NCBI GenBank assembly: GCA_032718475.1
Contig: JAUCBJ010000753.1
Coordinates: 1 to 63,898 of the forward strand
Origin: Nemertoderma westbladi
Lineage: Eukaryota > Animalia > Xenacoelomorpha
Reading direction: 5' to 3'
DNA length: 63,898 nucleotides
The position numbers and the translations under genes were made by a program. Each line of letters starts with the position of its first letter. The first letter of the stretch is position 1. A model generated the notes under the pieces. The model ran no database searches, was not told the DNA's origin, and saw only the letters and a program-made list of their open reading frames with translations. Positions 8,841 through 48,750 of the stretch are shown one piece after another.

Positions 8841-8856
8841 ATTTTATTATATATAA

Positions 8857-11439: not shown

Positions 11440-11723
11440 GTTTGATATCAACATCATGAAATCAAAAGTAGAAGAGATGATACAAATCACATTTCGTGAA
11501 ATGTAATTTTCAAAAAAGTGCCAAAAGTTGGGTTAAAAATGGTACTATAACTCGAAAATCTCCTTCTCAACTTCTCAATATTTCTAAAAACCGTTTTCAC
11601 TATTAGGAAGGTGATAAATTTTTAGGAAAAGTCATAAAATTTCACATTCTCCAACTGCATTTGTTATAACAAAAAAACCACGGGGGTCATATTGACCCCC
11701 AACCCCGGATTTAATAGGGTTAA
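11440..11723. mobile_element. Terminal fragment of the piggyBac-like non-autonomous family seen at 60483..62025 (mirrored at ~41166..41450)
   Basis: Ends gggggtcatattgaccccc...atttaatagggTTAA, the same terminus as ~61985-62029. Confidence 0.7.
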
Positions 11724-13230
11724 ACAATGCCATTTGCCACTGAGCTCTTTCAATTAGAATCAACCACATTGCCAAAGGAAATACAGGGTGCATTCCATGG
11801 CATTTCATGGCCTTAGATATTGTGGGGTGAGTCATCTCTATCGATTCCTCTTTGGGAAATGTAGGGGTTTCTAATGTCAGTGCTAAAATTTACACATGCT
11901 TCGTGTACTACTCCAATCATCATTATGACAGTGAATAATGTGGAATCAGCAGACAAATGTGATGAAGATGATGTTTCTCTGCCCCAACTTTCGAACTATA
12001 GATATTTGGATTTAACTATGGTCGAGCTCTTTATTCCTATAAATCAGTCCATTCGCTTTCCTAACAAATGCTGAGCTCTAGCTAGTATCACTCAACAAAT
12101 GCAACAAATGTGATGATTGGGACTCCAGTATCACTCAACAAATGCAAGAATAAAAACTCAGTTTTGTTGATGGGCATACATACTATTAATCAATTTCAAA
12201 ACAACACAAGTAGTACGTAATATGCAATATTCACTATGGCCATACATACGTAGGGCCTACTACAATACAATAATTTTTTTTAGCATAAATGTTATTCAAA
12301 ATGACTCTCATGCTGTATCCTGCTTCAATGATGGAAAATCTTCGAGAGGTCATGTTCTCAAGAATATGGGAATTGTTCAATGAATGGTCTCTCTTATCTT
12401 GATAGAATTCGAGTAGACAAAGCCAATAGTGAATTATTTAAGATAGAATCTTCGGCAAAAGGAGGCAACAAAAGGAAGGAGCGAGTCAATGAAGAAGACG
12501 ATAATGAATATGGGGCTGGTCAATTCTAGTTAATAATGTTGAACCATCCTTTATCTACATCTCCCTCAGTCATCATAGTCATCATTTATATCACCTAATA
12601 CCTCTTGAATCTTGAGAAATCGCATTATATATGTTACATTTTACTCTTGGTCATTTTTTTTAAACTCCGAACTTTAAACTTGATTTACTCAGAATCATGA
12701 ATTCACGGATACAATTACTAAAGAGATCAAGGCAGTGCACCATTACTATACTTCATACGAAGATCCCACATCTCAGCATATAGATTGCCCTGCATCGTGG
12801 TATAAGTTTATAAAGAAAGATCCTAGCTATACAGACAAACCTGTGGAAATAGCCCCCTTATGTTATTAAACAGTGAGGAAATCACCAATGGGCGTATGAC
12901 CTATAGAATGGCATCAGAAACGTTTTAAGTATAAGGATAAACTGTATCGGACAATCAAGAAGAAGCTCGTTCATTGACAGGGCAGGGGCTACTTCATTGA
13001 CAGCTGTGGGGGAAGGAGTTAAGATGAAATACCTTATAGTGCTGGCAGAATGGGGGTTTCATTTTTTATAATTCATATCTAAAAATGATTTGTCAAACTG
13101 CTAAAAAAATATGCAGACTGCCAAGATCATGCCAAAAAATAGGCACAATATACATTGGCAAATTGGTATGATTATATATTTTGTCAAATTATATTGCTAA
13201 AATATTTAGTTAGTATAGTATAGTTAGTAG

Positions 13231-16565: not shown

Positions 16566-16865
16566 TAAAAAATATTTAGTTTAATATCTTACACCCTTGT
16601 TACACCTGGTACGAAGTTTCAGAATTTAGTTGTATCATGTACTCGGTCTATATAGTCCCGCTCTCAAAAAGCATTCCTTTGATCAAACATTGATCAAACT
16701 TTGATCAATATGTACCATGTAATATTGAAATGTACCAGGCTTATAAAGCCTGCCATTGAGTTATACCAAAGGCGCTGCAATTCAAAGTCTAGATTCCCAC
16801 TGAGCCATGTGTCAATCAAGCAGCCCTCTTTCCCTCTCTCTCTGTGTGTAATGGTCCACATGCTC

Positions 16866-17610
16866 TGTGGGGCGAGCCACGAAGTGAGCAAAGCCTTAGC
16901 ATATGGGTACCACCATTAACAAGTTGTCTGTCGTCGTCGTCGTAAATTTTTGATCGCTAATAACTCGGTTATTCCTTGATGAAATTAAACAAAACTTGGT
17001 ATGTATGTAGTCCGGCAAAAGCTTAGAAAGAATCTCAAGTTTGGTCAAAAATGAACGAACTTAACGAGTTTACAGTGGATACATAAATATAATAATAATA
17101 AAATAATACATAAATCAGCAGTCACTCTCACAGTTTCGAGACTTTGCACAGTTATAAAGGACGTTAGTCTCCGTTTAGGGATACTATTTTAAGACAAAAC
17201 AGGATGAGCACAACGAGGCTAATGAAGGCCATAAATCAGCAGTCACTCTCACAGTTTCGAGACTTTGCACAGTTATAAAGGACGTTAGTCTCCGTTTAGG
17301 GATACTATTTTAAGACAAAACAGGATGAGCACAACGAGGCTAATGAAGGAGAAGAGTATTGTAAAACTAAAAATGTCATACTTAACTTAAATAGCCCTAG
17401 TTAGAAGGTTTACAAATGACAGTTAAAGTGTGTAAGGGGAAACTGAAATGGATCTCTATTGTTACAACTAGTTTATCACAAACTGATAGCATCGCCTTCA
17501 CTCATATATATTTTAGGAAAGACAGTTTTCGTATATCTAATGGAGATTAGTATAATGTACTTTCTAATTTAGGCTCTCGTGCTGCGCGAAGGCCCCACGA
17601 ACATGTAAAG
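16866..17610 (+). mobile_element. Non-autonomous repeat, probably Helentron-associated (DINE-1/HINE-like); related copies at ~37460..38070(-) and ~31790..32435(-)
   Basis: Shared terminus tgtggggcgagccacgaagtgag, GTC/GTCT microsatellite, gatgaaatt..aacttggt core and gcgcgaaggccccacgaa subterminal motif; the family label is an inference. Confidence 0.5.
17108..17349 (+). repeat. Tandem duplication of ~120 bp, left arm only
   Basis: cataaatcagcagtcactctc...gaggctaatgaagg occurs twice; a single copy lies in the right arm at ~37720-37841. Confidence 0.9.
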
Positions 17611-19309: not shown

Positions 19310-20602
19310 CCAAATTAAAAAAAAATTCCATTGCGAGACTGCTCCATGGAAATCAGAGTGGGTTCCGTAAAGGTCGTGGGACCATGGAGCCCATTTTGGC
19401 AATTAAAAGGATAATTGAAGAGTTATCAAAAAAGAAAGACAGGCTGTTATCTTTGTTGACTTCTTCAAGGCCTTTGATTCAGTCTCTCGCTCATGTATGT
19501 TCGGCATACTTTCATTATATAGGATTCCTGATGAAATTATTGCAGCAATCAGATCAGTAGTATATGATGGTTCAACAACATTTGAGTCTACTGTTGATGG
19601 TGACACAGAACCATTTTAAGTATTATGGGGAGTCCTCCAAGGAGACACACTTGCGCCATTCTTGTTCATAATTGTGGTTGATAATTGTGGCATGTCTTCA
19701 GATCATCATAATGATGATGGGGTGATGGTAACTCCACCTACTGGCTCCAGAAGTCAAGGAAATCCTGCCAAGTACCTAACTGATTTATACTTTGCTGATG
19801 ACTTAGGAGTACCCTCAGAATCACTAGAGGGAGCCCAACGGCTCTTCAGCTCATTAGAACAGGCTGCTTCTAGTGTGGGTCTTTTTATTAACTCAAAAAA
19901 GACCAAAATTTTGACAGTTAACTTTGAAAGTCCTCAGCAAGTCTTGGTAAGGGTGGTATGCTTTAGCATGTGGACGACTTCTGTTACCTGGGATCATGGA
20001 TCCAGGAAGTCAGGTGAGGGAGGACCTTCGAATACATAATGGAAAGGCATGGGCAGCCTTGAATAGGCTTTCCAGGATTTGGAAGTCACAGAGGATTAAT
20101 TGGAAACTTAAGGTCCGATTATTTAGAGCAGCAGTAGTTCCAGTACTCCTCTATGGGAGTCCATGCTGGGCTCTAACTGCTGAGGACACCAAATCTCTGG
20201 ATGGCACCTTCACAAAAATGCTACGCCAGGGTTCATTGTGTCAAGTACAATGCACAGCACACATCTCCAACCAGACACTATATAACATTGGAGGTATCTC
20301 ATTGGTTCCCCCCAACTTGATACTAGAACAAAGTCACCTCCGATTTGCAGGACACTGCTTTCACCATGAGGACCAGCCAGAGCATAATCTTGTGCTTTGG
20401 CAGCCTCATGGAGTGAATAAGCATGGTGGACAGCCGATGACGTCTCAAGAAACGCATCTTAAAGGACACGCATGGGCCTTGAAGATGCGGATGATCTAGC
20501 AAATGTCATGGGTGATAGGGAGTTGTGGTGGTGCAATTTTGTTGACAAGCCGGCACAGCATTCTTAAAAATGCAGCATGCCAATCCTAGTAGTACTAGTA
20601 GT
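19310..20602 (+). mobile_element. RTE-clade LINE, more diverged copy (RT domain to tail)
   Basis: NQSGFRKGRGT, FVDFFKAFDSV, GVLQGDTLAPFLFIIVVD, YFADDL; ORFs 19662..20039 and 19996..20499 parallel 15..893; agtagtactagtagt tail. Confidence 0.9.
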
Positions 20603-22200: not shown

Positions 22201-23482
22201 CACACGTCTTTGTCTCACCCGCGCACTTTAACTCATAATATAGACTACTGGTCCACCACTCATTGTAACGACATCTTCATTAACACCTCCATTATCTCAT
22301 TAACTTTTCTATTAATTTATTATTTTCATTACAGATTCATTAATTTCTCCACATTCATCATCATCATCATTAGTTTACAAACAGAATATAAGTATCTTTA
22401 TATATTTACTTTGATTGGGTTTATAATTCCAATGTAAATAAATATGCTGATGTTGTTTTTTGTGAATCAACTTTGACATTCGTAACTCATTTTCTATTGA
22501 GATATTTGAATTAAGATATAAAATTATTATTGTGGAATGAAATAACGGGGAGATTTTATCTTATCAAATTAATTGTGATAGTTAATTAATAAAAGAGTCT
22601 TAGTCAGCGAAACCTCTGTAGATGAGACACTTATATTTGATATCCGCTTGTCTGTCTGTTAGTTTGTCTGTGTGTTGGGGTGTCTGTGTGTTTAATGATT
22701 AAAATTTGTTATTATAGTTATTTATTAGCTAAAAATTGTATCACAGACTCGGCTTGATCTGTTCAATAGGGCGCGTTTAAGTTGCTAATTTATTAAATTA
22801 ATTTCCGTGAGTTTATATTAATGAAATTCTAAAAGGGGACGGGCAGAATTACTGGAGTTATGACGAGTCAAAGTTATTCCACAGATTAAATAAACACTGA
22901 GGATATTATTTATACATGTTTTTACCCACTGACTGTGAGTTGTTTGCTTGGTAGTTTCTTAATGTTTCCTGTAACATAGTATTGTGTTACTTGGGTGGAA
23001 TAATGTAATATATCTGTTCAATCAATGAAAGCTTATGCACTGTTATAATTATTATATTAATTATAAGTTAAATTATGTATTAATTGTATGCCTGACTGTC
23101 TGTCTACTTTTCTGTTTGTTTGTCTGTTTGTCATGCTTGTCTGTTTGTTTGTCTGTTTGTGTTATAGTTAACATGTTTCTTGCTATTGAGCAACTAATTT
23201 TGCACTGCTTACTGATCAACGTTTATTCTGAGCCATTTACGTAGTTAGTTACCATCCAGCATTCCTCTGTTTTGATTTAGTTAACAAGGGTTACTGTTTT
23301 GTTTTTAATTGTTTTTTATTAAGTGTATTAGATTACAATAATTAACGATGATAAATTCATTCATAACGACGATTAAAAATGATATATTTTGAAATTCAAT
23401 AACATCAACTTCCATGGTGTAAGATTCTGTTTCTGAAACTTTTTCTGATATTATCTATTTATATTTTTCAGATCCGAATCCG

Positions 23483-26326
23483 ATGGTGGTTAACTTCACA
23501 AACACCGGGCGGACTATTGGCCTGGCTGCTGCCCAATTGGGACTTATTCAACTAGAATGCGGCGGTGACGACGGGGACTGCATGTTTGCCTCGATAGTCA
23601 CCGCCGTGTACTTAGGAACTGGACACTTGTACAATGTAGGTGAGTTGTGTAATACGGCCGCCAATTTTTTCAACGATAATCCAGAGTATCGGGGATTTTT
23701 GGAGATGGGGGGGAAGACATACCCAAGGTATATAGAGGACCTACGTCACGGAAGGGAATGGGGAACCCATGCAATATTGTGTGCCCTTTCATATTCATTG
23801 GGTTACAGTTTCAATATTCATACGTGGGATGGGCAAATGGGTAACGACATTATCATCGGGGCAGCGGGGGTGGTTATTCATCTGGGTTTCGTTCCGGGCC
23901 ACTATACTGCATTGGTTCCCCATTTCCAGCAACCGAGGGGACATTTCTACGCCCAACCGGATATGGAAAGGAATCGTGGGGTGGGTAATGTAGGTAGGCC
24001 AAGTAGTGTAGGGGGGCCGAGTAGTGTAGGGGGGCCAAGTAGTGTCGGGGGGCCGAGTAGTGTAGGGGGGCCGAGTAGTGTAGGGGGACCGAGTAGTGTA
24101 TGGGGACCAAGTAGTGTAGGGGGACCAAGTAGTGTAGGGGGACCGAGTAGTGTAGGGGGGCCGAGTAGTGTAGGGGGGCCAAGTAGTGTAGGGGGACCGA
24201 GTAGTGTATGGGGACCAAGTAGTGTAGGGGGGCCGAGTAGTGTAGGGGTACCGAGTAGTGTAGGGGGACCGAGTAGTGTAGGGGGGCCGAGTGATGTAGG
24301 TAGGGATAGTATTGGGCACAGTTTCTATGTAGGTAGGGGAAGTAGTTTAGTAGAAAAGTTAGGGAATCAAACACTTAGGGGGTACCAACCATACATAAGG
24401 GACAATATTAGGTTGGAATGTATTTGGGTAGAACGGGAAAATGGTAGAGTAGAAGTTGTAGAAGTGGTAAGGGTTGTAGGATCGGTTGGGGCTAGTAGTG
24501 AGGTAGTAGATAGGTGTAGTAATTGTAAGAGGGCTAGTGTTTCTGGGATGGTGGTTGAATTGGGGGTATATAATGGGGAACGTAGAAATAGGAAGTATGG
24601 GGAACTGGGGAACAGAAGGGGAACATTTACAGTTTGTGGGGAATGTAGGCGGTACATTAGTGTAGGTTTAGGGGGTAGTAGAGATGCAAAATGGGCAAAC
24701 GCTTGGCCATCGTACCTGTGGGATTTACTCAAAAAGTCTAGGGATGGGGGAATTTACAAAATTATACCGGAAAGTTTAAGGGAATCATGGTGGGGGGTCA
24801 GGGATCAATTTTCAAATGAGGTGCGGGAACATTTGGGTGATAGGGCAATTTTTAGGGACATAACATTGATAAGGGAGTGGTTTATAAGGGAGGTGGGTAC
24901 ATTACAGGATGGTGCGATGGCCAATGCGTTGGATTCATTTCCTTATCCGGTTGTGAAATGTCCTCTCGGTTGCCATGAATTTATCGAACGCTGCAATTTG
25001 CAACCATTTCATAATTTTATCCATAAATTTGTACCAGGTTTTAAGGAATTTCGCCCAAAGCCCTACATGTCTCGAGGTGTTCGACCGGACTGGCCTCGAG
25101 ACAGTTCCCATTTAGATTGGGCTGTCCAACCTTCCTTAGTGATCACTGAAAATGAGGGACTCTGTATGGCCTTCTGTGAGCACCACACCAACGCTACACG
25201 GACATACATACACGCACCAAGACACCCGGGGAATGACAACAGCTTACAACACTTAGAACGACTGGCACCAGTGACAGTAGTACCACAACTAGTACGGGAG
25301 GGTAGAGTAGGGGACATGACGGCTAGTAACGACGTAGTTAAGGGGGTAGGGGGGTACTTCGGCATCTCCACTTGCTCCTTAATTTCGGACCCAGATTGCC
25401 ACGTGGTTGACGAGCGGCTGGGCAAATCGGAGACTCTTGTTCTAGAGAACAGATCCGATATTGCCCAGTCCGTTTCCAACCGCGCGTTTCTGGGTCCGGA
25501 ATTTGTGGAGCAAATGACGTTGCCACGGACACCACGGCATAATACAGAGGACGTACAGGACTGCATACGGGGGGCGACGACTGTACCATGTGACGAGGCT
25601 CTGTTCCAATGGCAAAATTACACGACACGGGACAGGGGGTGGGACCAGTACCACAACTACAGTTTGCCATTGGCGCATCCTAATGACGACTTTGGAATGA
25701 CGCCTTTTACTGAACTCAATACTGACATAACTGTTTTAGGGACTCTAGTTAGGATACTTTGTCATTCCCCACTGACACACCGAACTTTACAGACACTAGT
25801 AGATAGGAATCCGACGGCCAAGACATTACTGACAGAGGTGACGGGGGATCTTAAAACGGGGGTTCAACACAAACTGACATATTCAACTGACAAACTAATA
25901 CAGGACAAACTGACGGAACTGAATGTACCGACGACAGACGGGGTGTTCCAGAAGGCCACATCGATTCTGACTCATTTTCAGGGGATTTCTCGTAGGGCGA
26001 ATATAAATATACCAACCGGGGGGGACATTGACATATTTACAAGGGAAGGGGGGCGGTTGTTCACTGGGGGGCTCAACTTTGATGATGGGGAATACTACGT
26101 TCAGATGATGGGGAGTAGGGAAGGGATCATTTTTAGATGGGGGGATAGGTTGCAGTTCTGGAATGTAAATGGGGATAGGGTGGGCACAGACGTACAGGTT
26201 AGGGATAATATTATTTATAAAAGATTTTCGTTTATTGTTTTGGTTAAAAGGGGGGCGGTAGGTGTTGACCTTAGCAGTCAGTTGGTTCACCACGCTGCAA
26301 ATGTTTTGTGCGGATCACCCAGATAA
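23483..26326 (+). CDS. N-terminal part: OTU-family cysteine protease domain, VGGPSS repeats, Cys-rich (Zn-finger) regions
   Basis: OTU Cys box GDDGDCMFASI, EWGTHAIL, His box GHYTAL; CSNC..CGEC; VKCPLGCHEF. Confidence 0.8.
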   Translation: MVVNFTNTGRTIGLAAAQLGLIQLECGGDDGDCMFASIVTAVYLGTGHLYNVGELCNTAANFFNDNPEYRGFLEMGGKTYPRYIEDLRHGREWGTHAILCALSYSLGYSFNIHTWDGQMGNDIIIGAAGVVIHLGFVPGHYTALVPHFQQPRGHFYAQPDMERNRGVGNVGRPSSVGGPSSVGGPSSVGGPSSVGGPSSVGGPSSVWGPSSVGGPSSVGGPSSVGGPSSVGGPSSVGGPSSVWGPSSVGGPSSVGVPSSVGGPSSVGGPSDVGRDSIGHSFYVGRGSSLVEKLGNQTLRGYQPYIRDNIRLECIWVERENGRVEVVEVVRVVGSVGASSEVVDRCSNCKRASVSGMVVELGVYNGERRNRKYGELGNRRGTFTVCGECRRYISVGLGGSRDAKWANAWPSYLWDLLKKSRDGGIYKIIPESLRESWWGVRDQFSNEVREHLGDRAIFRDITLIREWFIREVGTLQDGAMANALDSFPYPVVKCPLGCHEFIERCNLQPFHNFIHKFVPGFKEFRPKPYMSRGVRPDWPRDSSHLDWAVQPSLVITENEGLCMAFCEHHTNATRTYIHAPRHPGNDNSLQHLERLAPVTVVPQLVREGRVGDMTASNDVVKGVGGYFGISTCSLISDPDCHVVDERLGKSETLVLENRSDIAQSVSNRAFLGPEFVEQMTLPRTPRHNTEDVQDCIRGATTVPCDEALFQWQNYTTRDRGWDQYHNYSLPLAHPNDDFGMTPFTELNTDITVLGTLVRILCHSPLTHRTLQTLVDRNPTAKTLLTEVTGDLKTGVQHKLTYSTDKLIQDKLTELNVPTTDGVFQKATSILTHFQGISRRANINIPTGGDIDIFTREGGRLFTGGLNFDDGEYYVQMMGSREGIIFRWGDRLQFWNVNGDRVGTDVQVRDNIIYKRFSFIVLVKRGAVGVDLSSQLVHHAANVLCGSPR
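23990..24295 (+). repeat. 18-bp coding minisatellite, 17 copies (VGGPSS)
   Basis: gtagggggrccragtagt units; the VWG variant recurs at units 7 and 13. Confidence 0.95.
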
Positions 26327-26746
26327 TCTTTTGGTCAAGGGAACAGATGTTGAGCCCGTACCGTGTTCCTATGATGGTTGTACCAGAACATCCCGCTGGC
26401 GCTGCCCATTTGGCTTACAGGTTTTCGGGGTCCACTGTGCCACCGCAGTTTGTCAATGGCATGGCGCTCCACTTTTAAGAAAAAGTGATAAAACATTAGT
26501 GGTGGATTCCCGATTACAAGAAGTACGATCTGGTTTGGGTAGGACCAGATCTCCAGTTCTGGAGGATCCTGCACCCCTCCCTGTACCCCAATCCCCTGAC
26601 TCTGCACCCCTCCCTGTACCCCAATCCCCTGAGTCGGCACCCCTCCCTGAACCCGAACTCCCTGAGGACCTGGCGGCATTCCTAGACTCCGACTCCGAAT
26701 ATGAAGAGATGTTGACATAGAGACCGCCGCAGTTGACGACCGAATT

Positions 26747-27421
26747 GTGCTGGGAATGTACGACAATCTGGATATAGAGGAACCCGAGGACAGCGACACC
26801 TTGTACTCCCGGGGTGACAGGGTTCCTCTATACGACACCAGCCAATCCACCCGCCTCCATGTACTCCTTAACGAGGGATGGGGTCTCCTCCACCGCCGGG
26901 TCTCTCAGTACTCCCACAACACCTTCAACAAAATCATGTACCACATTACCTCGTTGAGTGGTGAAGGATCTGTGCCGTTGTTATATCCTGAAGCCATATT
27001 GTATCCGCGGATCTTTTGGCACTGCGACTATGCCAAGTCAGCGACGGGAGCTCTGCCATCAATTTTATTTTCTGATCGGGATAACGCTCCTAGAGGTTAT
27101 GCCCCGTTGCAGGATCATAATCTAATCAGGCTCAGGGATATGGACCTTCCTACTGCCCAGAATAAATGCTTTCAAACTTTTCTATTTGAGGCAAAAATTA
27201 ATACCCAATTAAATCACATTTCGTCGACAATGGTATTCAAACGGGGGCCGGAATTTTTAACGGATAATCAAAATGTTTTTACTTCATGTGGGGAAGAAAA
27301 TAAAATAAAATTCGACGAACTGGACAGTAGGAGGAAAGTAAATGAACTGTCAGCCTTGATTGGAGAACAAAATTGGGATTATTTTTTGACGGCGACCTGC
27401 AACGACTCACACATGGGGTAG
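26747..27421 (+). CDS. Pre-Rep region up to HUH motif I
   Basis: PLLYPEAILYPRIFW, DSRRKVNELSA, YFLTATCN (motif I, cf. FxTxTCN). Confidence 0.75.
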   Translation: MLGMYDNLDIEEPEDSDTLYSRGDRVPLYDTSQSTRLHVLLNEGWGLLHRRVSQYSHNTFNKIMYHITSLSGEGSVPLLYPEAILYPRIFWHCDYAKSATGALPSILFSDRDNAPRGYAPLQDHNLIRLRDMDLPTAQNKCFQTFLFEAKINTQLNHISSTMVFKRGPEFLTDNQNVFTSCGEENKIKFDELDSRRKVNELSALIGEQNWDYFLTATCNDSHMG

Positions 27422-30400
27422 CACCTCTATATCGGGCTGTGCTTAGAACTGCAGCACAAATTGGCGCAGTTCAAAGTTTACAAGAATTAATCGAAGCCCA
27501 CGCAGTTATTTTGGCCCGGGCGTGGCACCGGTCGGCTAACTTTTTAATGAAATGGATTGAACACAGCCCACAGCAACCTTGCGGTCCTGTTAGGTTCATC
27601 TGGTGGCGGTTTGAATTTCAGGGCCAAAACGCTTTGGGAAACAAACCGCACATTCATTGTGGTATCACTTTACATAAGGAAGACAAAGCCAAGACGCTGA
27701 GTCGCATTTGTTGTCAGTCGAGGAGTTTATTTGAGGAAGAATTTGAATCAGATTTTGAAACTTTACATAGGGATGGGTTAGTTAAGGACTGGGGTGACTT
27801 CAGAACTTTTTTAAATAGGTTACAATTTTTACAGACTCATAGCTGCCATAAAGGTAAGGCCCGTTGCCAGAAAGTTCGTGCTAATGGTGACACTTTTTGT
27901 CGGTACACTCGGTACCTAGAACGTTCCGAAGCAGTGTTCATTGAACGCAAAAACATTTTTTCAAACGAAACCATGGATATCATGGAGTGTCTTGGACTGA
28001 CAACAATGGATGGTGAAGGGGAACGTTTATTGCACCAAGATTTCCGGGCTGGAAAATATCATTACCCGGCCTGTAGTGATGAGTTTTTTGTCCCCACCAT
28101 CCCACGCCTATTTACTTTTACACGTTCTTGTACTAACGTACAAGTATGTGATAGGCGTTTCATGGTTAGCTATCTGATTAAATATGCTGCTGGCAAAGAG
28201 GAAAGGGCCAAGGTCCTTTTCAATGAGTCAGTAGCAGAAAAAGGCAAGGTTACTGTTGATGTGCTACCCCTTGTCCATGAAAAAATTTCCGGCGCACAGA
28301 TGGCATCTCAAGAAAAAGGGAAGAGGGAACAGGTATACACGTCACGAAACTTCTCCCAATACGAGGTAATTTGGCACGCCCTGGGGCTAGAATACTGTAA
28401 CACCAACGTCGAATTTAAACACGTATCGACTCTAGCCCCAGGGTACAGACCCGGATTCCATAACCGTAACCCCGGCAATAAGAAGCGCAAACTCATCGAA
28501 ATCCAAGAAGATGGGCAGACCCTGAGACCGGTGAGCACACGTGTCGATCTCCCTCAAGAACGGCAGTTCACCGAGTCTCAGGTTATGCTCATCGACGACT
28601 ACATCCTCAGTCCCTATTACGCCGACTCATTGACCAAATTCAACCTGCGTCCTCCAGAACTGCGAGTATTCAACCAATTGGGAATGTACCACAAATGTTT
28701 TATCACAGAATCTTTCCAAGGGGAGTGGTCATTCTCAAGCGAACTCGGTGAGTCACGGTGGGTGGATGGAATAGGGCATCTTGTTAAAGTTCGAGCTTCT
28801 GGTATTGCAACTGCTGTTAGCTTTTTAACTGAAATTGCGGGAAGGGGGGAGCCATTGGCTGGGGAACTTTTAGCGGCAGTCTTTGGACCTATAATTCAAA
28901 ATCAACCAGAGTACGTAAGTCGTTATGTTGATTTGGCGTCTACAAAGCCTGTTGTGATTGTCTATTCCAATGTAACACCAATGCAGACCGAAAAATTTAT
29001 CATACATGTCCTAATGTCTATGGGACATATTTCTAACGAGATTGACCTGTATTCCATAGGCAATCTGTTGGAATGTTTTCAGAAGGCAAAGCTGGTTGCT
29101 GATTGGCGTAATGTGACGGAGGCTGAGTCTCTCAAAATTTGTCATGATTACGTCACTCAGCAGCTCCAGTATAAGCCTATCAGTACTAGACAGTTTGAAA
29201 AACTGTTAATGGCTTCCAACTCTGTATTAAAATCCTTTTTGGCTGGGGACGGTCTGAAATATACAAACATGCCTTTGGTGTTGGAATTGCTGTTCCAAGC
29301 TGCACTTTCCACTGACCTGGCGAATCAGGAGTTTACTCGTCACGCCAACTTAATAAAGGGTTTCAGGGAACAGGGGGTTTCTAACCTACCTGATGATAAC
29401 TTATGCCAAGTTTCAGGTAACATTTTACCACAGGACTGGGAAGCAGTCATAAATCAATGTCCGTTACAAAATGTTGAGTCAGTATTGGAACAGCGAGCTT
29501 GTTTAGATTTTTGTAAACAAGCAATAGACAAAATCAAAGATCCTGCAACCACATTTGTGGAATCTCCGGTTATTGTAGGCACCCCGGGAACAGGGAAGAC
29601 TCACGTACTCCTGACAGCAGGCGCCTATGCCTTAGCTCGAAATTTAAAAGTTGCCCTTATTTCACTCACTGCCCGGAGGTCCCGTGTGCTCGGCGGAATG
29701 CATTACCATCGATTCCTTAGCCTTGGTAGCCAAGGAACAGCCACCAAAAAGATGGTAAGTGCGTTAGCCGAGCAAAGCCTAATGAGGTTAGCTAAGAGCA
29801 AAGTGCGGCTGGCAGTCCTGCAGCGTGTGGACGTGATTCTAGTCGACGAAATCGGCCTGTTTAGTGCAGAAGATTTTGCCGTACTAGATCACGTCCTCCG
29901 AAAGGTCAAGGATGTGGATGTTCCGTTCGGTGGCACTCTGCTAATCGCCAGTGGCGACCCGGCACAGTTGCCACCTGTATCGGGACTTCCCATCTGGCTG
30001 TCACCGCACTTTCTGACAACCTTCAGGATAGCCCGACTCAATCAATACGTCCGTGCTGGGGGGGACGCCGATCTGCGGCGCTTGTTAGAGCTTCTCCGGC
30101 GCCCTTCCCTCACCGACGTGGAGATTGAGTCGGCTATTGAAATCATACGAACGCGGTGCGAGCGCAACATTGTTCCTTCCTGGGAAGACGTACCAGAAGA
30201 TTACACCTCCCTGGTTGGTACGCACAAAGCTGAGGAACATGCCACTGAGGCCTTCCTAACCAAACTGAAGGCTAGGGTCAACTTGGAGGGGGGTTCATTT
30301 TTTTCTAGGGATGAGATGCAATGTGGGGTGGATTCTTGGGGGCTAGCTTCAACTAGGGTAACTCAGGCACTGGAAAGGGAGGTCATGGACAGGCGGGAAA

Positions 30401-31047
30401 TTTATTTACACAAGGGGGGGATCATGCGGTTAACTTACAATGGGGCAGTTGGGGGGTACGTATTTTCCCAGGGGCAATTGGTGGTAGTTGAGGGTCTACC
30501 AGTGGACACAGATCCATGGGAGGAACAGAGAGTCATGGTCCGTCTAGCGCCGCCACAAGAGACACATATCGACGTAAACAATATCAGCCACTTCCCACTG
30601 ATATCTTTACGTCGACATGTGTCTATTGATATCCAAGTAGGGTCAGACCTACAAAAGGCCCATCGCGAACAGTGGCCCCTACTTTATGTGCTAGCCATGA
30701 CTCTGCACAGGGTTTTGGGAGAAACATGTGAGAAAGTAGCATGTCAAATACGCCATAAACTGAATAAAAAAGGACGGACACATGACCCTGACGACATTTG
30801 GAATCTATGGCTCAAAGAACAACTTTTAGTTTTGGTATCCAGGGTCCGTACTCTGGATAACCTAATGTTTGTTGGAAACTTGGATGACAACATCAAAGCA
30901 ATCCGTTCCTTACTCAAGGTGCTGTCAATCTATGCTAAATTTATTTCGCGTATGATTGACAGCAGGGATTTCCAAAAGTTGCCCTCCCACGCGACAATTT
31001 ATATAACATTGCGGCCAATAACCCCATCCCTCCTTATCGTAGACTGA
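27373..31047 (+). CDS. HUH (Y2) Rep endonuclease plus SF1B Pif1-like helicase
   Basis: WWRFEFQ..GNKPHIH (motif II), YLIKYAAG (motif III), GTPGTGKT Walker A, LVDEIG Walker B, FGG..SGDPAQLPPV, VLVSRVR. Confidence 0.93.
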   Translation: MGLFFDGDLQRLTHGVAPLYRAVLRTAAQIGAVQSLQELIEAHAVILARAWHRSANFLMKWIEHSPQQPCGPVRFIWWRFEFQGQNALGNKPHIHCGITLHKEDKAKTLSRICCQSRSLFEEEFESDFETLHRDGLVKDWGDFRTFLNRLQFLQTHSCHKGKARCQKVRANGDTFCRYTRYLERSEAVFIERKNIFSNETMDIMECLGLTTMDGEGERLLHQDFRAGKYHYPACSDEFFVPTIPRLFTFTRSCTNVQVCDRRFMVSYLIKYAAGKEERAKVLFNESVAEKGKVTVDVLPLVHEKISGAQMASQEKGKREQVYTSRNFSQYEVIWHALGLEYCNTNVEFKHVSTLAPGYRPGFHNRNPGNKKRKLIEIQEDGQTLRPVSTRVDLPQERQFTESQVMLIDDYILSPYYADSLTKFNLRPPELRVFNQLGMYHKCFITESFQGEWSFSSELGESRWVDGIGHLVKVRASGIATAVSFLTEIAGRGEPLAGELLAAVFGPIIQNQPEYVSRYVDLASTKPVVIVYSNVTPMQTEKFIIHVLMSMGHISNEIDLYSIGNLLECFQKAKLVADWRNVTEAESLKICHDYVTQQLQYKPISTRQFEKLLMASNSVLKSFLAGDGLKYTNMPLVLELLFQAALSTDLANQEFTRHANLIKGFREQGVSNLPDDNLCQVSGNILPQDWEAVINQCPLQNVESVLEQRACLDFCKQAIDKIKDPATTFVESPVIVGTPGTGKTHVLLTAGAYALARNLKVALISLTARRSRVLGGMHYHRFLSLGSQGTATKKMVSALAEQSLMRLAKSKVRLAVLQRVDVILVDEIGLFSAEDFAVLDHVLRKVKDVDVPFGGTLLIASGDPAQLPPVSGLPIWLSPHFLTTFRIARLNQYVRAGGDADLRRLLELLRRPSLTDVEIESAIEIIRTRCERNIVPSWEDVPEDYTSLVGTHKAEEHATEAFLTKLKARVNLEGGSFFSRDEMQCGVDSWGLASTRVTQALEREVMDRREIYLHKGGIMRLTYNGAVGGYVFSQGQLVVVEGLPVDTDPWEEQRVMVRLAPPQETHIDVNNISHFPLISLRRHVSIDIQVGSDLQKAHREQWPLLYVLAMTLHRVLGETCEKVACQIRHKLNKKGRTHDPDDIWNLWLKEQLLVLVSRVRTLDNLMFVGNLDDNIKAIRSLLKVLSIYAKFISRMIDSRDFQKLPSHATIYITLRPITPSLLIVD

Positions 31048-31394
31048 TCCCTAACACGTCTACGGGATTTGTCTACTGTATTGAGTCCATAGATTTCCTC
31101 AACCATTACATAGGCGAGGCTGCTAATCTAAAAAAGCAGCTTCGCAGACACAATTCTGAGGGAGTCTCAGACCATTACTGTAGGTCATTAGGTAGGTGGT
31201 TCGTGACCTTTTACATTACAGGATTTCCCGGTGGGGGTCGTGACCCACAGAACATCCTACGGCGGTGCAATTTGAGGACAAGCATTCGGGACGCGTTAGT
31301 CGCAAATACAACGTCCGCCCAAATTGTACAGGCTGCTATGGATGTTCTACATGACGAACACTACGACGAACTGACACTGGTAAGTATGAGGTAG
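30972..31394 (+). CDS. C-terminal GIY-YIG (SLX1-like) nuclease domain, reached by frameshift
   Basis: Manual translation in the frame of ORF 31203: GFVYCIESIDFLNHYIGEAANLKKQLRRHNSEG...GRWFVTFYITGF. Confidence 0.8.
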   Translation, partial: PKVALPRDNLYNIAANNPIPPYRRLIPNTSTGFVYCIESIDFLNHYIGEAANLKKQLRRHNSEGVSDHYCRSLGRWFVTFYITGFPGGGRDPQNILRRCNLRTSIRDALVANTTSAQIVQAAMDVLHDEHYDELTLVSMR

Positions 31395-31789: not shown

Positions 31790-32435
31790 CAACTTTACAC
31801 GTTCATGGGGCCTTCGCGCAGCATGAGGCCCAGTTATGAGATACAAATCAAAATCGAGCGACTGTATCACAAAATCAGTATTTAACTTTATAAATTAGTA
31901 AAATTTAGAAATTTAACCACACCACCAATCAATCAAAGAAAGAGGGACAGTGTACGTGTTCAGCCCTTTTGCTCTCCACCTTTTGCCCTGCAAATCACTT
32001 GAACTAATTAAAAACTATAATAGAATGGGGTATGTGGATTACATCTGTATAATTTTTAAGTATAATTATTGAAGTCTTATACTGTAAAACAATTAATTTC
32101 CTTTAACAGGCAGGTTGAAAGTGCTGTTTTTACCGTAATCAATTTAATTAACTAATTAACTGCTATTATCTTAGCTTCTCGAAGGCCACACGAAAATTCA
32201 ACTGGGAAGATTTCTAAACTTTTACCAAACAACATGTGAACCAAGTTTGGATAGATTTCATCGAAGATTGGCCGAGTTATTAACGTTTAAAATTGAACAC
32301 TGCAAAAAAAGCGACAGAACGACAGGTTGATTAATGGTACCACTACGTTAAGGATCACTCACTTCGTGGCTCGCCCCACAGGTTGATTAATGGTACCACT
32401 ACGCAAGGCTCACTCACTTCGTGGCTCGCCCCACA
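31790..32435 (-). mobile_element. Diverged member of the HINE-like family; terminal ~56 bp tandemly duplicated
   Basis: tttacacgttcatgggggccttcgcgcagca and cactcacttcgtggctcgccccaca (twice) are shared with 16866..17610. Confidence 0.6.
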
Positions 32436-32525
32436 GTATTCACTGTGAATCTATACTCCACAATAAATGTTTTTAGGCAATGAAGTTGGTAGGTTAATAG
32501 TTTCTGAGCATCCTTGTAATTCAGT

Positions 32526-34782
32526 ATGAAGATTTGGGAGCACCTTCTTACACAAGTCCAAATAAGACTATTTCTCTACCACATTAACAAGCGCGAAATT
32601 GCGCTAAGGTCCGCGTCTACTAATGCATGAAATGTCTCCTTGAATGGCTTAAATACCAATCTTACACCAAAAATTTATTCACCAAAATTGAGGATTTAAC
32701 TCGATACTTAGAGTTTCCAATTTTCACACTCTGCCAACTGAGCCACTGGGGCCGTATCAAGGCCTTACTTATACAAAACGCATTGATTATTATTATAATA
32801 ACATATAATATTATTATAACGCATTGCTTTGGCAGATAGCATGGCCGGAAACAGCACCGCCAATTTCGACAAAAGATGGGGTTGTAGCCTTTGAGCAAGC
32901 AAAGGATATACTTTCACAGTTTGGTTTCATGGACAGCAGCGTAGCGGCTGAGAAAATACGACAGCTTATTACATCCAGGTCCAAGAGTATCTTAACATCT
33001 AAGAAAATGGTTGACGGTATGTTTGACGTCAGTTACCTATTCGCATCAAGATCATTCGACATCAGTTTCGACATTTGACAAGATTGTGTGTCCGCTAAGC
33101 CTTTGGCGATTAATAAGATGAAACGTAACTATCATGTCGCCTTCGAAGCTCCAGAGTGTGAAAGGAAATCTAAACTATTCAAATTAGTAACCAACGACAC
33201 CGTTCAGGGGAAATCCCTAATTAGTTTCGTAGACAGCAATCTGGGTGACGAAGTGGAACTCTCCACTATTAAAACACTATTCGGCGTATCTACTCGTCTC
33301 TCTCACGGGAATGAGCATATCACCATCATACCTGAAAGAGACGTGAGTATGCCTCATTTACATTCCGGGTTGGGATTTAAGATCACTCTTTATGATACTG
33401 GTGGAGGAGACGAAATCATAACTGGGAAATATCGTCCCAGGAATATTGAAAACATAGTTTCCTATCGGTTAGTAAGGTCGGGTGGTATAACACTTGAAAG
33501 TCAAGAGATTAAGTCTCTAACAATTAACAAACGAGTTGAAAACTTATCCAAGTTTAATGTCTTTGATATGCTATTCGAACTATAGCCTACTTTTGCAGGG
33601 TGGTTGACTACCAGATACCTTCCAAATCGACCTACTTAAAGGGTGCAGTGCACAGATTGTACCTAAAGAACATGTCGAAGTTCTGTAATCATTATGGAGT
33701 ACTTACAGGGAACCCTGGGGTAAACAACAACTGTATAGTCAATGCTGCATGCACTATGGAAAAAATTTCCTTGAGTCACAACCTCCAAGTAGAGGATAAT
33801 GTTCCAACGTTTGAAATGTCAGTAGAGGATAATCTATCTTTAAAACGAAAGGTTGATGGCTGCACAATTTATGAGCCGAGTCCAAAATTACGAAGCAGTT
33901 TCAAAACTTACAGCTCTACAGACGTGTTTAGCGACCTCTCCGAAGAGGAGATTGTAACATTAAAGACAGTAGGAAGATGGCTGACAGGCGCAGACAGAAA
34001 CGGCAGGAGTTTAATTTTCGACTACTACCACAAGTCGGAATTAGAAGATAAGGACGCTAAACAGCATTATGGAATTAATAACTGGAGGATAATACGGTGG
34101 GTGAAGGAAGCTGCTAAAATCGTGGCTATTGATAATCCAAAAGGGTCCGAGAGTGGGATGAGGTGCTTCTGTACTGCAATACAACCTGATCCATTATGGC
34201 ATTATACAATGTTATTGGCCTCCATCCCCATTAGCAAGGAAGTCTACCAGAGATCGTTAGGCGAAATGGTTCATTTTGAACTGCCTATGTGGTATTATCT
34301 AAAGAAGCGTGCCTTTCGTATCGGACAACCAACACCTGTGTTTTTCATGCTAGGGACCAACTCCCTGCTTGTATGTGGCGAACTAATGCTACCGATTGCC
34401 AATAAACCATTCTTAAACAAATACGTCTTTGTACGCAACACGACTGAGGTCGGGATGTCAACGACAGCGTTTATGGATAAAAACCTCGATATAGGGATCG
34501 TAACAATAAAAGATAAAAACTACGTATTTTGTAGGAGACGACAAGATGAATATACAATTGAGGCCAATATTGCGGCGACTACGTATAGAGGGCAAGATTT
34601 AATATCTAATTTAATATTTAGTATTCAGGTTAGATGAGGAAGATGTCCCAGAGCCTGAAACAATGGCTGAAGTTATAGACAATAGAGTTTATCGGGAAAA
34701 TTCCAGTGTTGATTCAGACATGGATTCAAACTCTTCAGATGAAGATGGTCCGGACAGCGATTTCTCAGCTGCTTCTAGCTGA
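32526..34782 (+). pseudogene. PB2: Endogenous viral element: orthomyxo/Articulavirales-like PB2 (cap-binding polymerase subunit)
   Basis: Collinear resemblance to recalled influenza A PB2: IALRSASTNA(MK)~PALRMKWMMAMK; QNALLWQIAWPE~QDVIMEVVFPNE; STIKTLFGVSTRLS~DICKAAMGLRISSS; HRLYLKNMSKFCNHYG~LRHFQKDAKVLFQNWG; MSVEDNLSLKRKVDG~VSIDRFLRVRDQRG; GQPTPVFFMLGTNSLLVCG~GNSPVFNYNKTTKRLTVLG; YVFCRRRQD~VLVMKRKRD. Intronless, with several lesions. Confidence 0.75.
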
Positions 34783-34954
34783 ATGGACTAACGTGATAAA
34801 TTGTCTAAGTCCTCCCATTAACGGAGGTGTTCGGTAAATGATTATACCAAAACCAAAGTGGAAATTAAAAACATCACCAGCATCAATGGAGTGAATACTA
34901 GATGCGTCGCTATGCAGACCTAAAAATGGTAAAGTAATATATGAGTGAATGGTG

Positions 34955-35352
34955 CTAGAGCTGTGAGCGCAATATGGATGAAATCACATTCAATATAAAC
35001 AGCCAAGCTGAAACCAGTTGATCAGCAAATATAACTGATGGTATTAACTTACATTCTGGTACCTCAGATTTGTTCCATGGTTTATCTTCAAATGCAGCCT
35101 TATATATTATATTATATCCTATTATAGGACTTATAGCCAGAGGACGACCAGCCCCTAAATGTGACACACGGACCCCTTCCTGGAACTTATTGTTGCACCA
35201 TCTCTCGAGAGTGCTCTTTGTAATTTTAAATTGCACAGCTACTGACCTAGAAGTTTTACCTCTTTGTTATTCTCCTTGTAGTACTTTACAGTACTTCTTA
35301 TATCAGCTTCTGTAACCAATCGAACTTTCTTTTTTCTATAGATTCGAGGCAT
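34955..35352 (-). pseudogene. pogo/CENP-B-like transposase N-terminal HTH remnant
   Basis: MPRIYRKKK...QFKITKSTLERW...GAGRPLAISP; a pogo-like terminus (..cctggtttaccctata) lies at ~38360-38376. Confidence 0.45.
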
Positions 35353-35632
35353 CATTCAGCAATTAATTAGGCAATTAGGTCTGTAGGTTTAATTAATTTC
35401 ACACGTTTATAGTGGATATTGTACCCAGTGCAGTAGGCCTAAGCTAAACCAGTAAACTATTATCCGAAGTTAGAACTGTCAGACTAGATGCAAAGTCAGA
35501 AAGTCACGAAGTTTTTTTAAAAGATTACAGCCGTAATGGACATTAGACAGGGCAGTATGCAAATACTTATAAACTGTTGATAGCTAAGTAAAAACTAGGC
35601 ACTGAACCTATACCACTAAGACTATACTTGAC

Positions 35633-38288
35633 TGTTGTAGGGTACCGGCCTAATAAACCTACCTAGGCCTAATCAAGTAACTGAGTAGCTTATACTGTTA
35701 GAGAAGCTTAACTAAAAGAACAAACCTAAGGTTTAAACAATTGAAACTACCATTTATACAACAATTTAATATATCCAATAAAATCATAAACAATCGCACC
35801 AAAAAAATCAAGATCCCAAAAACTAGAAACAAATACGGACATTATTCATTTCTTATAGCATGCTCTAGAATATGGAATCGCAAAAACAACTTATTCCGTG
35901 ACTAAATATTTCAAAATAAATTTATATCGCAACTAAAAACACACTACATGAAACAATACGATAGATCAGCCGTTATGTAACGTCGTGTTCGTTGCTCAGT
36001 GTACGATTAGTTTATGTTGTTCAGATTTATAACAAGTTTATGTTTCTTTCACACTATTGGTATTGTAGGACATTTGAGTATAGTGGCGCTTATCATTAGG
36101 TAACTGAATTTAATAATTTCGATAATAATATATATATATATAACAGAACAATCCACCTATAATGGATTTTCCCTAACTGTAACCGAGTTATACAATTAGT
36201 GAGTCTAACCTTGTAGATAGCAGCTTCTGATGCATCTTTGTCACATTCTTTTTCCTCCATTAGTCCCCAGATGTCTTCGTCCATACTGTCTAACTTCTCA
36301 CTGTAACAGTTCAGGATTGTGATCTTTGAGAGCCTCTCCTCTCTAGTGAGCTGATCAATGTCGTCGGCGTCGTGAATAGTGATCGTCACTGCCGATCTTT
36401 TCCCACCTCTCGAACGTATCAACCATTTGAGATAATCAGCCATGATTAGGAATGTTGTCACACAAATGTTTCCAATGTATCAAATTGACACAATTAATTG
36501 AAAGTGATACTGTGTTACTTTTAGAGTTTGATTGAGTTCATAATTGAATAAGGTACTCCCCCAAGTGGGAGTCCTTTTGAAATAATGTACAATTAAATTA
36601 AATTATTTTTATCGGGCACCATATAATGGATTTTCCCCAACTGGAAGTTCCAAAATAGAAAATTGTTTTTCTTTAATATAACAACGTAAACTCTATATTC
36701 AATATTGTGACAGTGAACTTTACAAAATGGTGCATTACACATTATTTTCTACTGAGTTCAAACAGATACATGATTTACAACTACAAAGGATACGGAATGT
36801 ATATTTACTTAGACACTAATCTAGCAATTTATTATAACCAACTGGATTGGCCCCAAACAAACGTATATTGGATGTGGGATATATTATTGATAGATAAATG
36901 TAGTCTCTAACTAAGTTTAACGGACTCTAATTAATTATATAAATTTATACATGACACCACCATAGGTTAAATGCTCTAGTATGAATAGTGTGCCTTGAAA
37001 TAATATGAGTGGAACAATATTTTTCTCGCGAATACAATATGTGATTTGTGTGTGTAGATCAGATTATGGACGTGAGTGAGTGAGTAGACTTCCCCTTCAA
37101 TAATATGATTCTAATATTTTTTTTTGTGTGTGTGTGTGCGTTTTGCTTCTTTGCTTGCGATGTATGACTAGGCCTGGTCTTAAATATTGATTTCCAGGTA
37201 AATGTTTATTTATATTGCAATATGGTATGTATGTACAGTAGATATACCGGCCATTTTACGAATTGGTTAAAACAATTTTTGCCCGTCAACTTTGGCATCT
37301 TTTTATTATCAGTTGTTATGTATAGTGCAATATACATGTTAACTGCCTTCAATCAGCATGCTGGTTAAAGTTTTAAAGGCTAATAAATATATATTGATTG
37401 ATTGATTGATTGATTGAGGTATGATATGGACGTGGTGTCCTGCGTGCTCTGCAGACATCCTTTACACGTTCGTGGGGCCTTCGCGCAGCACAAGAGTCTA
37501 AATTAGAAAGTACATTATACTAATCTCCATTAGATATACGAAAACTGTCTTTCCTAAAATATATATGAGTGAAGGCGGTGCTATCAGTTTGTGATAAACT
37601 AGTTGTAAAAGTAGAGATCCATTTCAGTTTCCCCTTACACACTTTAACTGTCATTTGTAAACCTTCTAACTAGGGCTATTTAAGTTAAGAATGACATTTT
37701 TAGTTTTACAATACTCTTCTCCTTCATTAGCCTCGTTGTGCTCATCCTGTTTTTGTCTTAAAATAGTTTCCCTAAACGGAGACTAACGACCTTTATAACT
37801 GTGCAAAGTCTCGAAACTGTGAGAGTAACTGCTGATTTATGGCAGATGGATACTCGTATCCACTGTAAACTCGTTAAGTTCGTTCATTTTTGACCAAACT
37901 TGAGATTCTTTCTAAACTTTTTCCGGACTACATACATACCAAGTTTTGTTTAATTTCATCAAGGAATAACCAAGTTATTAGCGATCAAAAATTTACGACG
38001 ACGACGACAGACAACTTGTTAATGGTGGTACCCATATGCTAAGGCTTCGCTCACTTGTGGCTCGCCCCACAGAGCAAGTGGACCATTGGTATAACTCAAT
38101 GGTAGGATTTATAAGCCTGGTACATTTCAATATTTGATCAAATATTGATCAAAGTTTGATCAATGTTTGATCAAAGGAATGCTTTTTGAGAGCGGGACTG
38201 TATAGACCGAGTACATGATACAACTAAATTCTGAAACTTCGTACCAGTTGTAACAAGGGTGTACGATATTAAACTAAATATTTTTTAA
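35633..38288 (-). repeat. Arm C (right); inverted copy of 16566..18460 with two extra insertions
   Basis: Reverse-complement identity; insertions at ~35983-36140 and 36158-36956. Confidence 0.95.
36158..36956 (-). mobile_element. Internally deleted LTR retrotransposon (BEL/Pao-like): 5' LTR 36622..36956, PBS, gag start, fused to the end of the 3' LTR
   Basis: 5-bp TSD CCACC at 36153-57 and 36957-61; LTR starts TGTCA; PBS TGGTGCCCGA at 36612-21; LTR end gggaaaatccattata repeated; gag-like RSRGGKRSAVT..LDSMDEDI. Confidence 0.8.
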
Positions 38289-44779: not shown

Positions 44780-47069
44780 CACAGAGTCCCTAGCAATTCT
44801 ATTGGGCCATTCTGATATATTAATTAAGCCAGAGGATGTCAAGGATGAGACAGTCTGTTTTCATCATGAAAAATACTTCCTGGATAAGTTTTCTTCCTTT
44901 CAAAAAAACTGTTGTGATCCATTTCAAACTCATAAACAGCTTGTTAAGAAAGACCTGTGAGAAATTGATCTAGACCTTTCTGTGTACCTTAATTCTGCAT
45001 TTCCTCAACGAAATTTTAAACCTGGCGAAAAGTTATGTACAAACTGCAGGAAAGGAGTCAATGACAAGCAGAAAACGGATATTATTTGTGAGGATAGTCA
45101 TAGCTCACTCTCATCTGCTGATTCTGAAACGGAGTACTTAGAAGCTCGAGACAATCTCAATCTAACAGTTACATATCTTGGGATTAGTCCAATTAAATCC
45201 CATAGTGCTTCTGGACCACGAGAATTGTATGGGAAATGCAAAGCAGCTGAGATTGATGATGCAGTTAGATCAAAACTACATAAGGCAATAAATTTAGAAC
45301 ACACAATGCCTTGCAGTCTTCCTCTACGATGGAACCAGTTTCTGAAAATTGTTCAGATTGTAGTAGACTTGTAACAGGATTAAAAGTTCAAGTTTCACTA
45401 GCAAATACTACAAAGAAAAAAATTAAACTTCTTACACTTGCTTCTCAGAGTTGGACAATACAGAAAGTGGTGTGTGAATTTCAAGTGACAAATTGGACTG
45501 CTAAGCAAGCTCGAAAATTACGCAATGACCACGGGTTACTTCCAAATGTAGAAAAGAAACAAGGATCCAGAACAATTAGTAAGGAAACTGTAGACATAGT
45601 CTCATCTTTTTACCAAGATGATGAATTTTCAAGGCAGTGCCCAGGAAAAAAAAATTTTAATCAGTTTACTCAGATGATTTAAAAAAACCATATCCAAAAA
45701 AGGCTTATTTTAACAAATCTGAGTGAGCTGTATATCGAATTTAAGAAGAGACACCAACTGTGTAAACTTGGTTTCTCCAAATTTTACGAACTACGACCAA
45801 AGTGGTGTATTACAGTTTCAGATTACGGAGCACACAGTACCTGTGTTTGCCTGTAGCTCCCTTCCCTTGTTTCTGCGCTTGAGCATGTATTTTCTGATAA
45901 TGACATTGAATTGGATTCAGAAATTAAATATAGACAATGGACCTCTAACTCTGAACTTGTTGTCAAGCTAAGCACTGTTGATGAGTATATTGATTTTGCT
46001 TCTAAGCTAATTTATAATGTTTTGCCACATTCATTCATATCTAAAATGCAATCAGAAAGGCTTTCAAAGTTAAAAGAAGAACTATCATCCTCAGACTGCA
46101 AAATCCTCTTAGACTTCGCTGAGAATTACAGTTTTGTTTGTCAAGATGCTGTTCAAGGGTATCACTGGGACAACATACAGGCAACTGTTCATCCTTATGT
46201 TGTTTACCTTAAAGATACAAGTTCAACAAAATTGGTGTCCTACAGTTACTGTGTAATTGGTGATGAGAGAGATCATGGAGTAGGCACTGTACATACATTT
46301 CTAAGCACATTAATGCGCCATATAAAGAATCAGTTTCCCCAAATTCAAGGTACAGTTCATTACTTTTCTGATGGTTCTTCGCAACAGTATAAGAATTGTA
46401 AAAACTTTACAAACCTTTGTATGCATGCACCATGCAGACTTTGCTGTAGAAGCTGAGTGGAATTTTTTTGCCACATCCCATGGGAAAAGTACTTGTGATG
46501 GCATAGGAGGAACCACCAAAAGGTTGGTTGCCATGTCAAATGTCAAAAATGTCCACTACTTTTATATTTCTAAAGAAGAAGTTGCACAACATACTTCTAA
46601 AATAACTTCAAGACTTACTGATGCAGCAACAGTATCTGGCCCATGGAGTCATCATAAATTTGTTCCTATTGCAGGAGATTCGAATCATCTAAAAATGTTT
46701 AGAATCTCTGCTGATTCTGACTTCACCATCGTGTCACCTACATCATATTTGTCACCATTTTCAGCTGAGGTAGATATAGGAACAGGAAAGTGGGTTTCAG
46801 TAATATATGATAAGGCCTGGTACTTAGGAATTGTAGAAGATCATTCTGATGAATATAATGATATATATGTCACATTCATGTACCAAGCACAACAATCCTC
46901 TAAACTAAACTGGAAATGCCTGCACAGAAGGATGAGTGTTGGGTTCCAAAATATGATAAAAGGTATTGATGCACCCCTCCTAACTAGCATTAGTGGTAGA
47001 ATATACCAATTTCCAAGCAATGAAGTGGAATGTATTGAAAAAATGGCTTCTCTCAAAAATCGTATTTAA
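44780..47069 (+). pseudogene. Sola (probably Sola2)-like DDD transposase, fragmented
   Basis: CCDPFQTH..KLCTNCR, FYQDDEFSRQCPG, LDFAENYSFVCQDAVQGYHW, FSDGSSQQYKN, WNFFATSHGKSTCDGIGGTTKR. Confidence 0.7.
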
Positions 47070-47129
47070 ATGAGCTTAAATGGAAGCTATATATCCAACT
47101 AGAGTACCTAATGGTCACATTAGGAACAC

Positions 47130-48750
47130 ATACAGAACCAAGTGCTTCACCTGACCCTTGCTCTCAATCAACCTATCAAACTCTTCAGCTAATGAGCAAC
47201 TTTGAGCTGAAGAGATATGCGCTTTAAGATAGCCTTGATACCAGCTACGACAGTTGTTGTCCCACGCAAGAAGGGTCTTATGCTAGGTAAAGCCTGTATC
47301 ATTCTCTGCTGCATCTGTAACTTCTTCTCTATCTGCCCACAAACTTTCAACATTGCGTTATCTAATTTCTCACAGCAATGACTGTTGCAAAGGAGATGCT
47401 TAGGTTTATATTCAGTTCCAAACTTTTCAGAAACAATATCTTGGACCAATAGATTCTTCACCACTGAGTCTGTCATAAAACTATCAGTCTTCATCCATAA
47501 ATCTACAGCTTTCATATCAGATGCATCATCCATAGAGACAGCTGCTGCCATTTTTTCATAGGATTCTATGATCAGTCTAGCGATATTCTGGCGATCTTCA
47601 TATGCAAAAAATATTGAACGTAATTGGAACAGTTGAATTGTTTGTTTTGATTCCTTGGTAGACAAATTGATTAGGACTACCAGCGATTCACCATCTATTC
47701 AACTTCTTGAAGTCGAGTTGAAGTGGCATGTAGCAACATTGTCATTAGATTTATTGAGAAAAGCCAAACCAGCATCCCGCTCTTCTGTAGCAGCTTGACG
47801 TTGCTTGTAGTTATTAATAACTTTTGTAGATGGAAGGACCCATCTATAATCTCTATATTCATTCCTCAGCTCTGTGGGGAGATTTTGCACTAGCAACTCT
47901 TCTTCTCTTGGTAAATGGGTCTAAATGATGGTCAGTGGCATTCGACTGACTTTGCTGGTATTCTTCTGGTGACAGGTAATAGTTATGATTGTAGAGCATG
48001 TTGCACGTTTTTTGAACTGCAACTCGAGATAGTTCAGCAGATCTGTTGCAGCTGAAACTGATGCACATGCTGATTTAATGTTGTCATTACAATCCCGAAA
48101 GAGTTATCTTCTCATCAACTCTAGAGAATCCTGAGCGCGAATGATGTTGAGATAAGCGGAGAGCATCTCTAGATGTTCCTGGAATTTCATCACCCCCTGT
48201 CAATTCTTCTCAAATCATCAATTTGTTGTCGTGCTGCTACTATCTCATTCAGCTTTTGTCTTTCATACTCCTCATCGATTTCCTTATCATTGATATACCC
48301 AACGCTAACACGCTTAGCCGACCTCGGATTATAGTAAAATATTTTCTCTGGATTATCAAACTCATCTGGGCTAGAAGAATTTTTTAAACAATCAAACAGT
48401 TGATTGTTGTCTCCATGGAATCTCCAGGTTCTCAAACGTTCTCTCTGTGATTTCCCAGCTAAAGCTGATTTCACTTTCCCCTTTGACATTACCTCATTCG
48501 AGTAGCTCTTCAAGCCATTACGAATATGTTTCTTGATTGTGTTCATAAGAGAAACATGTTCATGTCCAAAGGCCTTCGACCAAATTTCTATCAGTGATGA
48601 TACATAACAATTTATAGTAGTGGTTCTGTGTGGATGTTCATTGCTTGGGGTGCCTCCAGGAGATTCCTCATATATATCAATTATTACCTCATTAAACCAT
48701 GGTAGCTTCTGTCCCAGATTTCAATTTCTTTCTTTCATCTTCTGAAACAT
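47130..48750 (-). pseudogene. hAT-like DDE transposase remnant
   Basis: HFNSTSRS.IDG, FFAYEDRQNI, FMTDSVVKN, HLLCNSH (CxxH); superfamily assignment tentative. Confidence 0.55.

Follow-up and report, generated by a model that had tools for sequence, protein, structure and literature searches.

Insertion in a high-copy host repeat

The 63,898-nucleotide window analyzed here, contig JAUCBJ010000753.1 of the Nemertoderma westbladi assembly GCA_032718475.1, carries a discrete insertion of 2.07 kb at approximately 32780–34841, located inside a high-copy host repeat in contigs of two studies. The insert is probably a broken, 5′-truncated and neutrally decaying endogenous fragment of a viral PB2 gene from a deeply divergent lineage of the Articulavirales. 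Open frames extend over 32624–32839, 32809–33078, 33079–33585 and 33567–34637, with an additional acidic frame at 34615–34782. The PB2-like path begins at 32818 and comprises 255 codons with one in-frame stop (33076–33078), a frame change near 33567–33600 and then 345 open codons up to 34637, ~600 codons in total (Table 1). The acidic tail is possibly a C-terminal extension.

Table 1. Features of the insert and its junctions, in window coordinates
Feature	Position	Strand	Evidence or remark
Left part of the interrupted high-copy host repeat	32586..32768		Covered by many contigs at a depth of ~8,000–16,000, with loose ends at 32586
Left copy of the imperfect 11/12-base duplication	32769..32779	+	Probable target-site duplication, from the empty-site join
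5′ junction	32777..32826	+	9-base word twice (32777–32785, 32818–32826) flanking a 32-base, 97% AT filler
Piece 1, lid/N2-like	32818..33075	+	Aligns to influenza A PB2 ~158–250; ends at stop 33076–33078
Piece 2, mid domain and start of cap-binding-like region	33079..33585	+	Best-supported part
Piece 3, downstream of the frame change, with the remainder of the cap-binding-like region followed by link, 627-like and NLS-like regions	33600..34637	+	21 of 5000 shuffles as high
Acidic, serine-rich tail of 47 codons in another frame	34639..34782	+	15 D/E, 10 S
3′ non-coding end of insert	34783..34841	+	No poly(A), no recognisable segment terminus
Right duplication copy (34842–34853) and remaining host repeat	34842..34900, end approximate		Contigs, junction analysis

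Three public runs of two studies (2019 and 2023), out of six runs listed, contain 84–93% of the words of 32400–35000; the run type is guessed as DNA, and one run is possibly the window's own source. Placing contigs on 31900–35500 with a likeness cut-off of 85% delineated sharply different depths. Summed depth reaches several hundred thousand over 31900–32504 and amounts to ~8,000–16,000 across the bins of 32505–32746 in runs X1–X3, while the core bins at 32868–34440 have a low and even depth of 22–131. Contigs of X1, X2 and X3, i.e. three of four runs, join 32765 directly to 34844, skipping 2078 bases, and similar joins were found in X3 and X5. At the likeness cut-off used, these joins may stem from paralogous repeat copies and not from an empty allele, the two being indistinguishable in contig joins; in both cases the repeat runs on uninterrupted where the core is lacking. 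Both junctions are crossed by a single X2 contig of 2268 bases with zero differences, and each is also crossed by contigs of X1 and X3. The core is present in DNA, is joined to host sequence and has an empty site among the contigs, as expected for a non-retroviral endogenous viral element (EVE).

The location in a repeat, where misjoins occur, and the guessed kinds of run leave some room for an assembly chimera or a contaminant in place of chromosomal DNA. This explanation is extremely unlikely, as contigs from both studies cross the junctions, the copies vary by substitutions and small gaps, and the stop and frame change mark decay at the DNA level.

An earlier, sequence-only reading had described a single ~700-residue path starting at ATG 32526 and amounting to a near-full-length PB2 with deletions near the N-terminus. 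The open frames it named do exist in the frame list. The frames at 32526 and 32627 belong to the host repeat, however, because depth there is high, variant contigs are many (one site within the 32627 frame varies in 77–99 contigs per run) and joins skip the core. Most of 32526–32627 and 32624–32839 lies inside the repeat part listed in Table 1 and is non-viral. There is no single path from ATG 32526, and the gene is not near full length: the insert lacks the first ~157 residues of PB2, and what had been read as an N-terminus with deletions is repeat sequence with a PB2 score at chance level.

Similarity to PB2

Similarity was evaluated by a targeted end-to-end (global) comparison with 17 natural PB2 proteins of influenza A–D viruses, influenza-like viruses of fish and amphibians, thogotoviruses and quaranjaviruses. 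The names of the viral loci were deduced from motifs, and the domain boundaries in the scripts are those of influenza A PB2. The insert outscored all 4000 shuffles and all 174 real decoys, and the matched span corresponds to influenza A PB2 residues ~158–759 with an identity of 9–14% to each of the 17 proteins. Each half also scored on its own, its value being reached by 0 of 15000 shuffles for one half and by 21 of 5000 for the other; per-domain support is uneven. For piece 2, the individual tests gave p = 0.002, a HMMER P of 4e-4, P = 0.011, and rank 1 of 1126 window frames at E 0.24. In this targeted global test, the collinear similarity is above chance, and the lid, mid-link, cap-binding, 627 and nuclear localization signal (NLS) domains follow one another as in a PB2 homolog. 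A basic word in piece 3, RRRQD, is aligned with KRKRD of influenza A PB2; the NLS profile alone does not land on it. Six motif groups had been proposed from the sequence in PB2 order, of which the lid, cap-binding, cap-627 link, 627 and NLS groups are recovered by the alignment and the N-terminal group is not. Upstream frames compared with PB2 residues 1–157 (p = 0.14) and 35–60 (p = 0.51) score at chance level.

In untargeted searches, no match was obtained in Pfam, PDB sequences or viral and metagenome contigs, no relative was found among 1.84 billion protein representatives with piece 3 as the only query, and the PB2 motif order is not visible to standard local searches. Predicted models are too poor to use, with a predicted local distance difference test (pLDDT) score of 33 for the insert alone and 46 with PB2 rows, and structure searches were uninformative, returning nothing significant; the weak PB2 rows obtained with the second model are circular, as it was built with PB2 rows. 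The CpG observed/expected ratio is 0.88 in the insert; host DNA has 0.59, and 8 of 8 natural segments fall at 0.29–0.54. We infer from it a virus without vertebrate-type CpG pressure, though the ratio could also count against a PB2 origin. The absence of PB2 residues 1–157 speaks against a full PB2 gene, not against a PB2-derived sequence, and is read as truncation of the fragment. The failure of the blind searches is weak evidence because true distant PB2s fail or nearly fail as well: among the controls run against Pfam, a quaranjavirus PB2 gets no better than E 0.08 and the isavirus PB2 has no match. The best PDB match of the quaranjavirus PB2 spans only N-terminal residues 35–356, and much of this part is missing from the insert. 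The profile or structure match whose absence the sequence-only reading had named as refuting was not obtained blind, which is a weak test in view of these controls. Two viral contigs, L001 and L008, match the PB2 motif by chance and carry unrelated RNA-polymerase-like open reading frames (ORFs) with a GDD motif.

A real insert could also derive from an orphan RNA or from a gene of some other, unknown RNA virus, the PB2 likeness being a post hoc chance collinear match. We regard this as unlikely, given that both non-overlapping halves score at the predicted place, two profiles from different genera concur, length and end point fit PB2, and true distant PB2s fail Pfam too. Alternatively, the insert could be a processed copy of a host cellular or transposon gene such as a PAS-like protein, as retrocopies fit the flanking duplication and 5′ truncation, and the Atlas search returned weak PAS-like clusters with feature scores of 0.85–0.91 to PAS/TraJ clusters. 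These matches share only 106–143 of 256 features, under the tool's guide of 170. With no Pfam match to PAS, no relative of piece 3 in the protein set, a core whose depth is low and even, listed pieces that give no hint of a parent copy, and no poly(A), a host-gene copy is very improbable. The proposal of an integrated PB2-like gene from an undescribed Articulavirales-type lineage is supported by the targeted profile tests together with the junction-crossing contigs.

Probable origin, decay and lineage of the insert

The ends of the insert bear on how a PB2 fragment would have entered the genome. The 3′ end has no poly(A), the longest A run in its 61-base 3′ stretch being 3, unlike the full natural segments compared, whose 3′ ends consist of an A run and a short terminus. 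Neither conserved segment termini nor a poly(A) signal was found at the insert ends, and the 5′ end is truncated, so that the terminal hallmarks of an Articulavirales segment are lacking. Among the marks of a retrocopy of the long interspersed nuclear element (LINE) type, 5′ truncation and an imperfect duplication are present and poly(A) is absent; target-primed insertion by a LINE without its poly(A) is possible. The word and filler pattern at the 5′ junction is probably a scar of end-joining. A host reverse transcriptase, probably from a retroelement, would have copied viral RNA, and the incomplete cDNA would have been joined by end-joining into a break within the repeat, leaving the imperfect short duplication and the AT-rich filler between two 9-base words; the insert may then have passed through the germ line, drifting as a pseudogene. 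The 3′ non-coding end also contains a short inverted repeat, a possible hairpin, at 34812–34828.

In influenza, the N-terminal region of PB2 binds PB1. The insert cannot give a working PB2 because this region is missing. Copies in sample S1 differ from the window copy by few substitutions and small gaps, also around some breaks, and the difference rate resembles that of the flank (8 in 1821 bases compared with 3 in 827, X3). The substitutions fit neutral drift after insertion, because only 1 of 8 falls at a third codon position, and the insert is likely decaying without function. A variant compatible with a PB2 origin is that the host still uses the element, whether to make a truncated protein or as a template for small RNAs. 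Mosquitoes do have transcribed EVEs (PMC10956553), and the differences of the S1 copies from the window copy around some breaks imply that not all breaks need be common to all copies. The lack of a third-position excess, the lack of a demonstrated start codon context or promoter, and the adjacent mobile remnants on both strands make such retention improbable.

In a quick PB2 tree without an isavirus row, the insert falls outside the influenza, thogotovirus and quaranjavirus groups and sits on a long branch (3.49). Its nearest neighbors are the thogotoviruses, weakly (72) and with a long-branch warning; nesting within the influenza, Thogotovirus or Quaranjavirus group was not found, the long branch making the placement unsure. 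A more tentative reading, at slightly under even chances, takes the insert for a fossil PB2 kept in a non-arthropod animal and derived from an Articulavirales lineage of family rank with a hitherto unrecognised PB2, for example one of the clades of aquatic invertebrates for which only PB1 is available.

The window is rich in remnants of mobile elements and also contains repeats. A largely intact Helitron-like element at 23423–31394 (+) ends ~1.4 kb before the insert, with no link shown, and includes a 967-residue ORF with an 18-base tandem array and an OTU-like match just below cut-off, a 1233-residue ORF with a PIF1 helicase, and a GIY-YIG frame that overlaps. It is followed by a very high-copy repeat at 31900–32436 with a terminal 55-base tandem duplication (32322–32436) and related ends at 16865–16912 and 38026–38072. 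Two RVT_1 reverse-transcriptase remnants lie on opposite strands at 14224–14799 (−) and 19620–20499 (+). A run of long broken frames at 1032–5456 (−) and 5636–6577 (+) has no Pfam match; 5636–6577 repeats part of 1728–3095 almost identically in inverted orientation. Broken frames at 44961–48720 and 58049–60138 read as DNA-transposon-like, with no Pfam match above cut-off, and satellite-like arrays with periods of ~158–163 bases occupy 57343–57710 and 61004–61704.

Comparison with known viral elements

PB2-derived EVEs are already known as a class, with two in the moth Chilo suppressalis (PMC12810003); one as divergent as the present insert was not found reported in the literature searched, which was covered partially. 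Orthomyxovirus-derived EVEs are also reported in fireflies (PMC6191289) and in Aedes, where there are 223 matches; these are mostly to NP and share 26–91% identity with known viruses, and the list of segments comprises NP, PB1, GP and two hypothetical proteins but lacks PB2 (PMC10956553). Like the insect elements, the N. westbladi insert is a lone fragment of a viral segment in an animal genome, broken by stops and frameshifts. Unlike those of Aedes, it has only 9–14% identity to every tested PB2, and it escapes BLAST-type screens.

New invertebrate clades have been described from PB1 (PMC12277240), and divergent aquatic Articulavirales include the 'Cnidenomoviridae', with PB2 unidentified in some and the deep lineages mostly known from PB1 (PMC10636315). 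As a PB2, the insert would sample this sequence space and serve as a query for libraries with an orphan PB1, and as a germ-line insertion it would tie virus to host more firmly than a metatranscriptome does. If the family-level assignment is true, it would be a seed for missing PB2 segments, and such EVEs would be invisible to BLAST-based screens. Tunicate influenza-like PB2s cluster with influenza C/D, and the supplements of that study may contain a relative (bioRxiv 10.1101/2024.12.15.628590).

Retention of domain order despite high divergence is documented for the PB2 of tilapia lake virus (TiLV; PMC10709604). With the 17 PB2 proteins, the insert shares the collinear order lid–mid–cap-binding–link–627–NLS, a similar length from residue ~158 and a basic word at the NLS place; it differs in lacking residues 1–157 and in its long branch, non-depleted CpG and possible acidic tail. 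The divergent aquatic Articulavirales resemble it in being deep lineages, several with non-arthropod hosts, and the influenza-like PB2s of sturgeon and carp have ~100 extra C-terminal residues, as the tail of the insert might be (PMC10636315).
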